This document shows positions 10,476-13,499 of a stretch of 32,000 bases of DNA, one piece after another. Made by a program: the position numbers and the translations under genes. Source of the stretch: Candidatus Thorarchaeota archaeon. Its GTDB lineage: Archaea; Asgardarchaeota; Thorarchaeia; Thorarchaeales; Thorarchaeaceae. The stretch covers positions 120,001 through 152,000 of the forward strand of contig SHMX01000004.1 of NCBI GenBank assembly GCA_008080745.1. The letters are read 5' to 3'. The stretch's first letter is position 1. Each line of letters opens with the position of its first letter. A model generated the notes under the pieces. The model was not told where the DNA came from. It ran no database searches and worked only from the letters and a program-made list of their open reading frames with translations.

Positions 10476-11294
10476 ATGAATGCGGATGTTCGAGATGAAT
10501 TAATCGAAACCCTCGATACCGCCCTTGCACATACTCGTTATCTTGAAGAAGAAGGCGAAAGATACGAAGCTGTGTTATATTCTGGCATTGGAAGAAGTCT
10601 TGAAGCAATACTACGACTTCTAACAGTAACTGATGCAGTTACAGATTATATATCTGGCAGTGATGCAGAGGCGGAGAGCGTTCCAGTAGAAGAGGCTGAA
10701 ACAACTATCGAAGAAGTAGCAGTTGCTGAGGCTGAAATGGAACCTACTGAAATAGTCGAAAGGGAAGAATGTGCTCCTGAGCGAAAAAATATCACTTCAA
10801 GGGTATTACCAGAACCAGGTGATGGCCTACCTGCTCAAAGAATAGCTCAAGAAACCTTAGTAGGTCCTGATGGGTCTGAACTAAGGCGAGAAACAATGAC
10901 CTATCTTGGAAAGATTGAGTGGTCTGGTAAGTGGTTGACTGCTAAAGGTGAACCTTTTGTGGTGACAACTTCAACAACTTTTACCGCCCAAGATGACACT
11001 GAAACAAAATTTGAACTTCGTCGATATAATTCAGAGGAGGCACTTCGAGCTGATACTGACCATATACTTCCTATTGTTGGAGAGATGCCGCCCTATTGGG
11101 ACGAAGACAGTGGTTTATGGGCTTTAGTTGTATCATCAGGTGATGCATCTCAGCTTGAATGGATGAAAGAAGTTGATATTATTCGGAATAATATAAATCA
11201 TGCAATGCGTCTATTCTACAGAGCAACGAGGATATTTTCAATGAAACGTCTATGCGGTGAACATGTAGAAGCAACGTTTCCTGATAAGTACTAA
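10476..11294 (+). CDS. Hypothetical protein with acidic linker
   Basis: 272-aa ORF: helical N-terminus, E/A-rich linker, C-terminal alpha/beta region; no recognised motif. Confidence 0.75.
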   Translation: MNADVRDELIETLDTALAHTRYLEEEGERYEAVLYSGIGRSLEAILRLLTVTDAVTDYISGSDAEAESVPVEEAETTIEEVAVAEAEMEPTEIVEREECAPERKNITSRVLPEPGDGLPAQRIAQETLVGPDGSELRRETMTYLGKIEWSGKWLTAKGEPFVVTTSTTFTAQDDTETKFELRRYNSEEALRADTDHILPIVGEMPPYWDEDSGLWALVVSSGDASQLEWMKEVDIIRNNINHAMRLFYRATRIFSMKRLCGEHVEATFPDKY

Positions 11295-12212
11295 GATAAA
11301 TCCAAAATAGGCAACAACTCTGATGGAGAATTGAGAATGATGGTTCCTTCAGGAGCCTTCTCTTTTTCCTCAGAGTTGGCCCAAGTAACAAGAATCGGAG
11401 TCATATCTGCTCTAATTGCTGCTTCTACATCAGCACTTACGTAGTTACCGTTCATTGTTTGTTGGACAATCTTGGACATCAGAGCGTTGGCCTCCCAGGT
11501 AACGGCACTGGGTGAAACTCTGTTCTGGTCAGGAATCTTATGTCGTTCAACCAGTACTCCATTCTGGATCACCCTATATAAGCTCCTATCGTTTTTTGTC
11601 CAGATATGTCCAAGTTTTTAGCATCTGTTTGAAACCCACGAAGGCACATAATTTTGGATTTATCTCTATTTCTCCTGCAGCTTTTAATAATGTGTAGGGA
11701 TTTGGTTTTGCATATCCTTTCACTCCACTCCACGTTACCGAATGAAGCATGTGAAGAATCTTTGATCGTTTTAGAAACGGTCGTGGATCATCATGTCGGC
11801 GAGTACAAATCCCTAACTTGAATCCATTATTGTAGAGTGCACATATTGTTTTTCTTCCATCCTCTGTGAGAGTTTCATAGTCGGTTTCGCGAGTTTCGTA
11901 TTTAAACCGCTTTTCTATCTCCAAGATAAGTTCGGTATCAATATTATCAATTCCGAGGGATGAAAATATCATTCTATCTGCGTCAATCCAATCTTCTGGA
12001 TTTTGTCCCCAGAGAGGACCAACGTTTTCTTTCACACAATATTGTGCTAGCCATTTATCAGAAACGCTGAATGCTCTTGCTACTTTCTCATCACTAAACT
12101 CTCCAAGAGATAGACCTACAGACTCACATACATCTCTAAAAACTTGTATTGGGGACATTTTGTTTTTTGTAATTTTGTGATGCAAGTCAAAGAGTACAGC
12201 TTGAATATCCAT
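11291..12212 (-). pseudogene. HAD-family hydrolase interrupted by an insertion (244 aa when restored)
   Basis: Motif I FDLHH, motif II ICTRR, motif III AKPNP. Motif IV is split: CAFVG at the end of the 11586-12212 ORF and GNYVSADVEAA in the 11291-11572 ORF. Removing 187 bp restores CAFVGNYVSADVEAA in frame (735 nt). Confidence 0.85.
11450..11633. mobile_element. 184-bp non-autonomous insertion element (MITE-like or recombinase-type mini-element)
   Basis: Flanked by ACC direct repeats (11447-11449, 11634-11636); both ends begin TTCA when read inward; TGGACA pairs with 10-bp period near the left end (11463, 11473) and inverted TGTCCA pairs near the right end (11597, 11607). Confidence 0.75.
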
Positions 12213-12234
12213 TTAGATCAATCCGTAGAATTTT

Positions 12235-12279
12235 CTCTAAGAATTACTTGTCATCGTAGCCAATAAGTAATTATTAGAG
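12235..12279. promoter_or_regulatory. 15-bp inverted repeat between divergent genes (candidate operator)
   Basis: CTCTAAGAATTACTT-N15-AAGTAATTATTAGAG, 14/15 match. Confidence 0.45.
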
Positions 12280-12311
12280 GTTTTTGATAGCAATATCTGA
12301 GGTCCATTTTT

Positions 12312-13499
12312 ATGAAGCGCATAGGAATTGTAGGGAATGGTGTTGCGTCGATAACTACAATCCGTGAATTAAGGAAACACGATAGTGACATTCCCATTGA
12401 TGTCTTTTCAGATGAAAGTTATCCATACTATCCACGACCAAAGCTAATTGATGTAGTAAGTGGAGAAGTTTCCAAGGAAGAAATTATTCAATTTGATGCA
12501 AGTTGGTATGAGAAACAAAATGTGACCCTAAGACTCTCTGAACCTGTTACTGAAATTATTCCTGATTCAAAGACCATCCTTACTACAATGGATACCTACT
12601 TCAACTACTATAAAATTTTGATTGCTACTGGCAGTCATCCCTTTATTCCACCGATTCATGGAATAGAAAAAAAGAGGGTTCATGTGGTTCGCACTCTTGA
12701 CGACGCGATATCCGTGAGGGATGATGTAAAGGGTAAAGGTCGTGAGATAATTGTAGGTGGTGGCATCCTTGGCATTGAATTAGCTGCAGCAATGAGGAAA
12801 ATTGGAGGTTCTCCCATCGTTATCAGTAATATTCATCAACTACTACCCGCCCAGTTGGATGCTGGTGCAAGTGATTTTTTGATTCATAGATTAGAGAAAA
12901 TGGGTATCACCATATATCTTGGATTTACTTGTGCTGAAATATCCGGAGCTGATCATGCAACTGGGGTGGTTTCAACCACCGGTGATAAAATCAAAGGAGA
13001 CAATGTTGTTATCGCTACAGGTGTTCGCCCAAACGTTACATTAGCCGTTTCTTCTGGAATTGAGACAGATAAAGGAATCATCGTAGATGAACATATGCAG
13101 ACCTCTGTGAAGGGTGTATATTCAGCTGGAGATTGCACAGAGTGGAAAGGTGTATGTTGGGGTATTATTCCTGTTGCATTGGATACAGCACGATGTGCTG
13201 CAAAAAATATTCTCAACCATGGTTCTGACACATACACTGGAACAACCCCCTCAAATACGCTTAAGGTAGCAAACATTGAATTGACTTCAATTGGTCTCTA
13301 TAATGTGACATCTCCTGAGTACCGCTCCATTATCAGTGCTAATGAGGAAAAGGGCACCTACTTCAAGGCGGTCTTACAAGATGATACCTTTGTTGGCGGG
13401 ATTGCATTAGGTGACAGGAAAGTAGCTATGAACATGAGAAGAGCAATCTCTCAACATCTTCAGATCACTGATCCTACTAAACAACTCTTTGAACAATAA
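12312..13499 (+). CDS. NAD(P)/FAD-dependent oxidoreductase (NirB-N/rubredoxin reductase-like)
   Basis: FAD-binding GIVGNGVAS, YPRPKL, ATGS, NAD-binding GGGILGIE, YSAGDC. Confidence 0.92.
   Translation: MKRIGIVGNGVASITTIRELRKHDSDIPIDVFSDESYPYYPRPKLIDVVSGEVSKEEIIQFDASWYEKQNVTLRLSEPVTEIIPDSKTILTTMDTYFNYYKILIATGSHPFIPPIHGIEKKRVHVVRTLDDAISVRDDVKGKGREIIVGGGILGIELAAAMRKIGGSPIVISNIHQLLPAQLDAGASDFLIHRLEKMGITIYLGFTCAEISGADHATGVVSTTGDKIKGDNVVIATGVRPNVTLAVSSGIETDKGIIVDEHMQTSVKGVYSAGDCTEWKGVCWGIIPVALDTARCAAKNILNHGSDTYTGTTPSNTLKVANIELTSIGLYNVTSPEYRSIISANEEKGTYFKAVLQDDTFVGGIALGDRKVAMNMRRAISQHLQITDPTKQLFEQ

Follow-up and report, generated by a model that had tools for sequence, protein, structure and literature searches.

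A gene-less insert in a HAD hydrolase gene of an Asgard archaeon is very probably a miniature IS607-family element

A HAD hydrolase gene of this Lokiarchaeota-like Asgard archaeon is interrupted by a 184-bp insert that is very probably a gene-less miniature derivative of an insertion sequence of the IS607 family, whose coding members carry genes for a serine-recombinase transposase (TnpA) and an RNA-guided nuclease (TnpB). The observations from which we argue are the number of copies, their boundaries, the homology of their ends to tnpA-tnpB elements, a GG core, the restoration of the host reading frame and covariation in an alignment of right ends. The IS607 family itself is known; what is new is a gene-less form of it with an RNA-like module that is conserved across an Asgard family. 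A targeted full-text search of a limited literature returned no description of IS607-derived miniature elements, an absence that is not proof of novelty.

An insertion in the motif IV region of a HAD hydrolase gene

The host genome is assembled in 19 contigs (3.16 Mb, G+C 41%, completeness 98%), and the window, by which we mean the whole 32,000-nt stretch analysed, corresponds to C4:120001-152000. An earlier note, made from the sequence of the window alone, had described an insert bounded by two copies of ACC, and its coordinates proved exact: ACC occupies 11447-11449 and 11634-11636, and the 184 bp lie between them (Table 1). Taking out 187 bp (the 184 plus one ACC) yields, as had been stated, a single 244-aa HAD frame (...KLCAFVG|NYVSADVEAA...). 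Both halves of the gene are still open, and the annotated N-terminal ORF extends into the insert, to 11586.

Table 1. Features of the insert, of the interrupted gene and of a tnpB-only relative (window positions unless a contig is named)
Feature	Position	Strand	Basis or remark
Gene-less miniature IS607-family element, family A, 184 bp (very probable assignment)	11450-11633	-	About 15 copies with identical boundaries; ends homologous to tnpA-tnpB elements
Left-end GG core (CC on plus), G before and T after = GGGT	11635-11636	-	GG in all scored copies; upstream G in 12/13
Right-end GG core (AACGG|T)	11448-11449	-	AACGG ends the element in the host genome and 12 genera
Left-end TGGACA pair, 10 bp apart, starting 22 nt from the core; predicted TnpA sites	11597-11612	-	
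Right-end pair TGTCCA-N4-TGTCCA (element sense), ending 13 nt from the core; predicted TnpA sites	11463-11478	-	
Nested stem-loop, right-end half; candidate 3' module of a TnpB guide (omega) RNA	11480-11522	-	Covariation
Outer stem CAGAG/CTCTG	11518-11522 with 11480-11484	-	
Inner hairpin CCCAG/CTGGG	11508-11512 with 11494-11498	-	
HAD hydrolase, N-terminal 192 codons (CAFV, then Gly codon)	11637-12212	-	Pfam HAD_2 and Hydrolase matches
HAD hydrolase, C-terminal 52 codons (GNYVSADVEAA...)	11294-11449	-	Colinear with orthologues straight after CAFV
tnpB-only element	C2:235583-236976		

Orthologues show the continuity that the note had proposed to check, as CAFVGNYV or CAYVGNYV is uninterrupted in eight Asgard proteins of 242-264 aa; the closest database relative, named from Candidatus Lokiarchaeota, is 57% identical and 244 aa long. 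Judging from these orthologues, the empty site would have read GTG GGT AAC, with a single GG, and the GGT codon of the C-terminal piece indeed holds one copy of the GG core. The N-terminal piece covers positions 1-158 of the 178 positions of Pfam HAD_2, which places the break at the motif IV region, where it had originally been put. The insertion explains a split gene that annotation would otherwise report as two fragments.

The HAD subfamily has peculiarities of its own. Motif I reads FDLHH instead of the usual DxDxT in the window protein and in all Asgard orthologues aligned (P0002-P0010), and motif IV reads GN...D instead of GD...D, again kept in all of these orthologues. As both altered motifs are conserved, we consider the protein an atypical HAD.

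The insert is not an assembly chimera. In two metagenome runs, contigs that cover the flanks reach 26-29 nt into the element, on both sides, and a unitig unique to the middle of the HAD-gene copy has a depth of 41.5, to be compared with 45 in the flanks. Given the entry of contigs from both sides and the equal depth, the insertion is real and is the main allele. The two runs are DNA runs of a single marine-sediment study, represented by contigs in which rare alleles are invisible; no RNA run is listed as containing the stretch. No contig of the two runs is listed as joining across the insert or as spanning a circle junction, rare forms being beyond what contigs can show.

Miniature copies and coding relatives

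Searching the host genome for other copies, as the earlier note had recommended, returned 18 matches, about 15 of them full length, with 75-94% identity. These gene-less copies make it a multi-copy mobile element, non-autonomous as had been proposed, and they have fixed boundaries: when they are aligned with their flanks, similarity begins and ends at the same columns in every copy, at xxACC|GTTCATTGT on the window-left side and at TTTGMAACC|C on the window-right side. Since ACC is invariant at all junctions, it is not a random 3-bp duplication. The statement that both termini read TTCA inward holds for the subfamily of the HAD-gene copy and fails for the family as a whole, as about one third of the copies end in TGAAACC and most others in TTGCAACC or TGCATACC. 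The copy closest to the HAD-gene insert is 94% identical to it, so that the insert did not arrive very recently from a master copy present in the assembly.

A MITE of the DDE type that duplicates 3 bp (ACC) was also considered and rejected, the "duplication" being invariant in all copies and the termini not being inverted repeats. By strict definition these elements are not MITEs: the termini of most copies are not inverted repeats, and what looks like a duplication is an invariant GG(T) core. They do resemble the DDE-derived MITEs of bacteria and archaea in being small, non-coding, multi-copy deletion derivatives found mostly between genes. They differ from classical MITEs in lacking terminal inverted repeats and a true target-site duplication, and in that their inverted symmetry is subterminal and made of predicted binding sites.

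The identity of the family emerges when the two ends of the insert are searched separately against the host genome. The window-left end alone was recovered from the ends of several contigs and from the beginning of contig C5, where it follows the antisense of a TnpB C-terminus (C5:1-590 consists of a tnpB 3' end, then the right end). The window-left end is therefore the right end (RE) of a tnpB-bearing element, and the tnpB-sense orientation of the insert is the window minus strand, that is, the sense strand of the HAD gene. At C1:300661-303310, inserted in a TldD-like gene, the order is left end (LE), tnpA fragment, tnpB and RE. The left end of this element consists of GGGT, AGGAAACAG (with AAACAG ahead of the hexamers) and TGGACA-N4-TGGACA, and its right end of a CCAG...CTGG hairpin, TGTCTA-N4-TGTCCA and CAATCAACGG|T; the miniature element shows these parts too, in an identical order. 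Contig C16 carries a left end followed by a serine-recombinase fragment (NF033518, 117 bits for a cut-off of 110). Both this fragment and that of C1 match NCBIfam NF033518, IS607 family transposase, with a MerR-type HTH followed by a resolvase catalytic domain. In all, the host genome gives four TnpB zinc-ribbon matches and two resolvase-domain matches, one of the latter directly upstream of the C1 tnpB.

Coding elements with both family A ends are present in the host genome only as partial assemblies: C16 has a left end with the 5' part of tnpA, C5 starts with the 3' part of tnpB and a right end, and contig ends of C1 and C11 are right-end stubs. Both tnpA copies found there are truncated. 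No intact tnpA is assembled in the host genome, so that present-day mobility of the insert is putative. Related genomes do contain full-length tnpA genes, in G019, G021 and G046 (185-195 bits) and in G020 (155 bits), all preceded by the same left-end design, and in one relative the tnpA-linked left end begins GGGTTTCAAACAG, exactly like the HAD-gene copy. The larger elements with the same ends that the earlier note had proposed to look for thus turn out to be tnpA (serine recombinase)-tnpB elements, partial in the host genome and present in related genomes.

The tnpB open frames at these ends are long, with 712 aa at L019:701-2839 on the minus strand (that is, G000:C1, in the host genome) and 727 aa at L065 (G020:C7). 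TnpB models cover only the last ~230 residues, and no family matches the N-terminal 470.

A second miniature family (family B, about 314 bp) has at least 10 copies in the host genome, for example at G000:C4:178851-179165, outside the window, and displays the same GG cores and hexamer pairs as family A. On the left it retains the decayed 5' end of a tnpA (72% identity to the C1 element), and on the right it matches the RE that belongs to the tnpB-only element of contig C2. No recognised source was found for the internal 60 nt of family A.

The insertion sites of 13 family A copies were examined by a frame-restoration test, and only the HAD-gene copy lies in mid-gene. None of the 12 others is a clear mid-gene insertion, nor is any of seven related copies (six of family B and the C2 tnpB-only element), so that these copies provide no further empty-site checks. 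The C1 element splits its TldD-like host gene at FDSEG|TPSSRTTIIENG. If the GG expected from homology is used, the host reading frame is shifted by one base, and a GG one base upstream, in a GGGG run, restores it; the exact crossover position is thus not fully settled.

This distribution bears on whether the insert might be removed from RNA, as a self-splicing or endonuclease-spliced intron in a HAD gene that still works. At 184 nt, the insert falls far below the length of group I introns. Moreover, 12 of the 13 family A copies and all tested family B copies lie between genes or at gene ends, which is not an intron-like distribution, and the insert folds weakly and matches no Rfam intron family at E<=1. 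We therefore hold splicing to be highly improbable, even though the insert has the orientation of the HAD gene, both halves of which are open, and fusions of IS607 or IS605 elements with group I introns are known (PMC10690162).

Two further family copies stop at contig ends, one of family A (C5:224576-224846) and one of family B (C6:181265-181683). Both break off at the second hexamer and continue into one and the same unrelated ~70-nt sequence; the cause is either a further insertion or an artefact of the assembly graph, at the CTTGGACAT word that they share. Five short contigs of the assembly (C14, C15, C17, C18 and C19) have a G+C content of 62-65%, for 39-43% elsewhere in the genome, and are probably bin contamination (stated contamination 4.8%).

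GG cores, phased hexamers and the recombinase

Read in element orientation, all junctions are (R)G-GG-T... on the left and ...AAC-GG-(T/C) on the right. The short core that the earlier note had seen as common to the ends and the target is thus GG, present at both junctions and in the target. GG stands at both termini and in the inferred empty target, and duplication is limited to this core, the C1 element fitting only with a 1-nt offset. Terminal inverted repeats are absent, and the subterminal repeats, two per end, are in helical phase (10 bp). The hexamers themselves had been described correctly: TGGACA starts at 11463 and 11473, TGTCCA at 11597 and 11607, each pair is spaced by 10 bp and the pairs are inverted between the ends. 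The unequal set-back is also real: the window-left terminus is separated from its pair by 13 nt and the window-right terminus by 21 nt (22 nt counted from the GG core), and in all families the interval between core and hexamers is 22 nt at the left end and 13 nt at the right end.

These pairs are more frequent than chance would predict. There are 57 TGGAYA-N4-TGGAYA sites in the 3.16-Mb genome where ~2 would be expected (an estimate from base composition) and, on our reading of the match list, 54 of the 57 are at ends of this element family. The left arrangement recurs just upstream of the serine-recombinase tnpA in C1, C16, G019, G020, G021 and G046. On the other side, tnpB adjoins the right end of the IS607 parent elements in C1, C5, C2 and G020, and the same right arrangement is found downstream of these tnpB genes. 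Like the earlier note, we regard such phased subterminal repeats as most likely recombinase binding sites rather than terminal inverted repeats of the DDE type, and more precisely as predicted TnpA binding sites. Mobilisation in trans by a site-specific recombinase, as the note had put it, is likewise suggested by ends held in common with serine-recombinase tnpA elements.

The nature of this recombinase is where we depart from that reading, which had favoured a non-autonomous element of possibly a new family, moved by a tyrosine integrase for which the hexamers would be arm-type sites, or by an IS110/IS1111-type enzyme. Direct repeats that are phased and asymmetrically set back, together with a short core common to ends and target, did speak for such enzymes. 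However, every coding element found with these ends has an IS607-type serine recombinase and/or tnpB, and no larger element combining these ends with a tyrosine recombinase or a DEDD transposase was seen in the host genome and 40 relatives. The published IS607 architecture already explains the same features (PMC6188088), so that we give a tyrosine or IS110-type enzyme very little probability.

IS607-family elements have GG in their termini and in unoccupied targets, and neither terminal inverted repeats nor target duplications; their TnpA dimers bind phased direct repeats whose distance from the terminus is ~20 bp on the left and shorter on the right (PMC6188088). A clostridial IS607 element has a strict requirement for GG, its TGGG target being the TAM of TnpB (PMC10690162). 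Members such as IS607, IS1535, ISC1926 and CboIStron resemble the insert in several respects: both termini and the target contain GG, terminal inverted repeats are lacking, nothing but the core is duplicated, and the subterminal direct repeats are phased at ~10 bp and set further back at the left. The partner genes agree as well: in the IS607 family and in the relatives of the insert, tnpB accompanies a serine recombinase that bears an HTH at its N-terminus. The G-GG target of the insert resembles the TGGG reported for CboIStron. Because the ends are shared with tnpA-tnpB elements and the architecture is that published for IS607, we assign the insert to this family and not to a new type of element. 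Against the earlier suggestion of a new family, GG in termini and target, the lack of duplication beyond the core and the phased repeats are all published IS607 features (PMC6188088; PMC10690162). In contrast to the elements just cited, the insert has no genes at all, measures 184 bp and resides in an Asgard archaeon. It has two clear repeats per end, for four or five at the left end of IS1535, and the hexamer TGGACA is specific to its lineage when compared with other IS607 elements.

Movement of the insert can be envisaged as follows. TnpA dimers supplied in trans would bind the two phased hexamers of each end and pair the ends, and recombination at the GG abutting each terminus would then release a circle and leave the donor resealed as GTGGGTAAC. 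The circle would integrate at another GG, preferably in (R)GGG(T/C), with the GG(T) core as the only apparent duplication. In the HAD gene, the target GGGT would have been provided by the Val-Gly codons of the motif IV region, and integration there would have split the gene. What looked like a new family thus becomes a defined IS607 miniature, with exact boundaries, a target motif and candidate binding sites, and the elements of 184 and about 314 bp offer very short natural substrates for studies of end recognition by serine transposases.

A stem-loop in the right-end half

The two halves of the element are unequally conserved, with 87-90% identity between copies of the host genome in the RE half and 72-84% in the LE half. 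The RE half contains a nested stem-loop (Table 1), which we examined in an alignment of 26 right ends from 12 genera. In this alignment 95.8% of cells are paired in the nested two-helix structure, and 6 of the 10 pairs show changes on both sides. None of 500 shuffles reached the observed values, and sliding the partners by 1-3 columns lowered pairing to 22-57%. Folding of single sequences gave unremarkable results for the two strands (z = -1.5 and -2.1). With only the 13 copies of the host genome, RNAalifold found almost no covariation (covariation term -0.22), and the long "stem" that it drew corresponds to the inverted hexamers. An Rfam scan of 10500-12800 at E<=1 returned three weak chance matches, none of them within the element. 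As covariation is close to nil within the host genome and the fold is weak, the claim for an RNA is founded on the cross-genus alignment.

A serine recombinase that binds double-stranded DNA has no evident need for such a stem, in contrast to a TnpB guide RNA, whose end coincides with the RE boundary. For this reason, we suggest that the right-end half may function as RNA, and the chances that it is specifically a TnpB guide-RNA (omega RNA) module appear to us about equal either way. Under this reading, the stem-loop would form the 3' scaffold of the guide RNA and the flanking HAD sequence would serve as guide, and copies within genes, such as the HAD one, could be transcribed by read-through from the host gene. 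TnpB made elsewhere would re-cut empty sites, which would favour retention of the element. More tentatively still, and with confidence somewhat below even, we propose that the commonest form of this IS607 lineage in one family of Lokiarchaeota-like archaea is gene-less, with recombinase binding sites and a guide-RNA module maintained by selection as all that is left. It would then be a double parasite, which borrows TnpA for movement and TnpB for RNA-guided retention.

A stem-loop near the right end is also what a derivative of the IS200/IS605 type would be expected to show. Under this alternative, the insert would be a PATE moved as single-stranded DNA by a Y1 HUH transposase and inserted 3' of GGGT without duplication. 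Besides the covarying stem-loop, this would account for the association with tnpB, for a conserved motif 5' of the left end and for the lack of target duplication, and gene-less PATE-like elements with guide RNAs are known for IS605 (PMC10055086). Nevertheless, the 98%-complete host genome has no match to a Y1 transposase (PF01797 / Y1_Tnp), the ends adjoin serine-recombinase genes in that genome (C1 and C16) and in four relatives, GG is found at both junctions, and the left end, for which no hairpin is predicted, displays direct hexamer repeats. We thus consider a single-strand mechanism very unlikely and retain the IS607 assignment.

The comparison is nonetheless useful, since PATEs, gene-less IS200/IS605 derivatives with omega RNAs (Meers et al., PMC10055086), share with the insert a minimal, non-autonomous organization in which two ends are served by a transposase in trans. 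The likeness may extend to a guide-RNA scaffold to be used by a TnpB encoded elsewhere. Unlike PATEs, which depend on Y1 HUH enzymes and have subterminal hairpins at both ends, the insert has hexamer repeats at these places, would depend on a recombinase of the serine class and would presumably pass through a double-stranded circle. Eukaryotic Fanzors are thought to descend from the TnpB lineage linked to IS607 (PMC10690162), and the present elements open a route to asking whether, in Asgard archaea, elements that carry a guide RNA and no genes make use of TnpB in trans.

The right end is widespread within the taxonomic family of the host. Its last 65-85 nt occur in 17 of the 24 other genomes sampled from this family, at ~80-88% identity, and in none of the 16 genomes sampled outside it. 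Among 20 RE sites fetched from relatives, only one has a tnpB in front, and in three a left end can be recognised 187-210 bp upstream; the remaining sites, to which the search pattern assigned no form, are without tnpB. One relative provides a much larger arrangement, at G020:C7 ~57400-66100 (L046, L065), where a left end with an intact tnpA lies ~8.6 kb from a tnpB with a right end, and a G+C-rich open frame of 1425 aa is located between them on the opposite strand. This locus represents either a cargo-carrying element or two separate elements.
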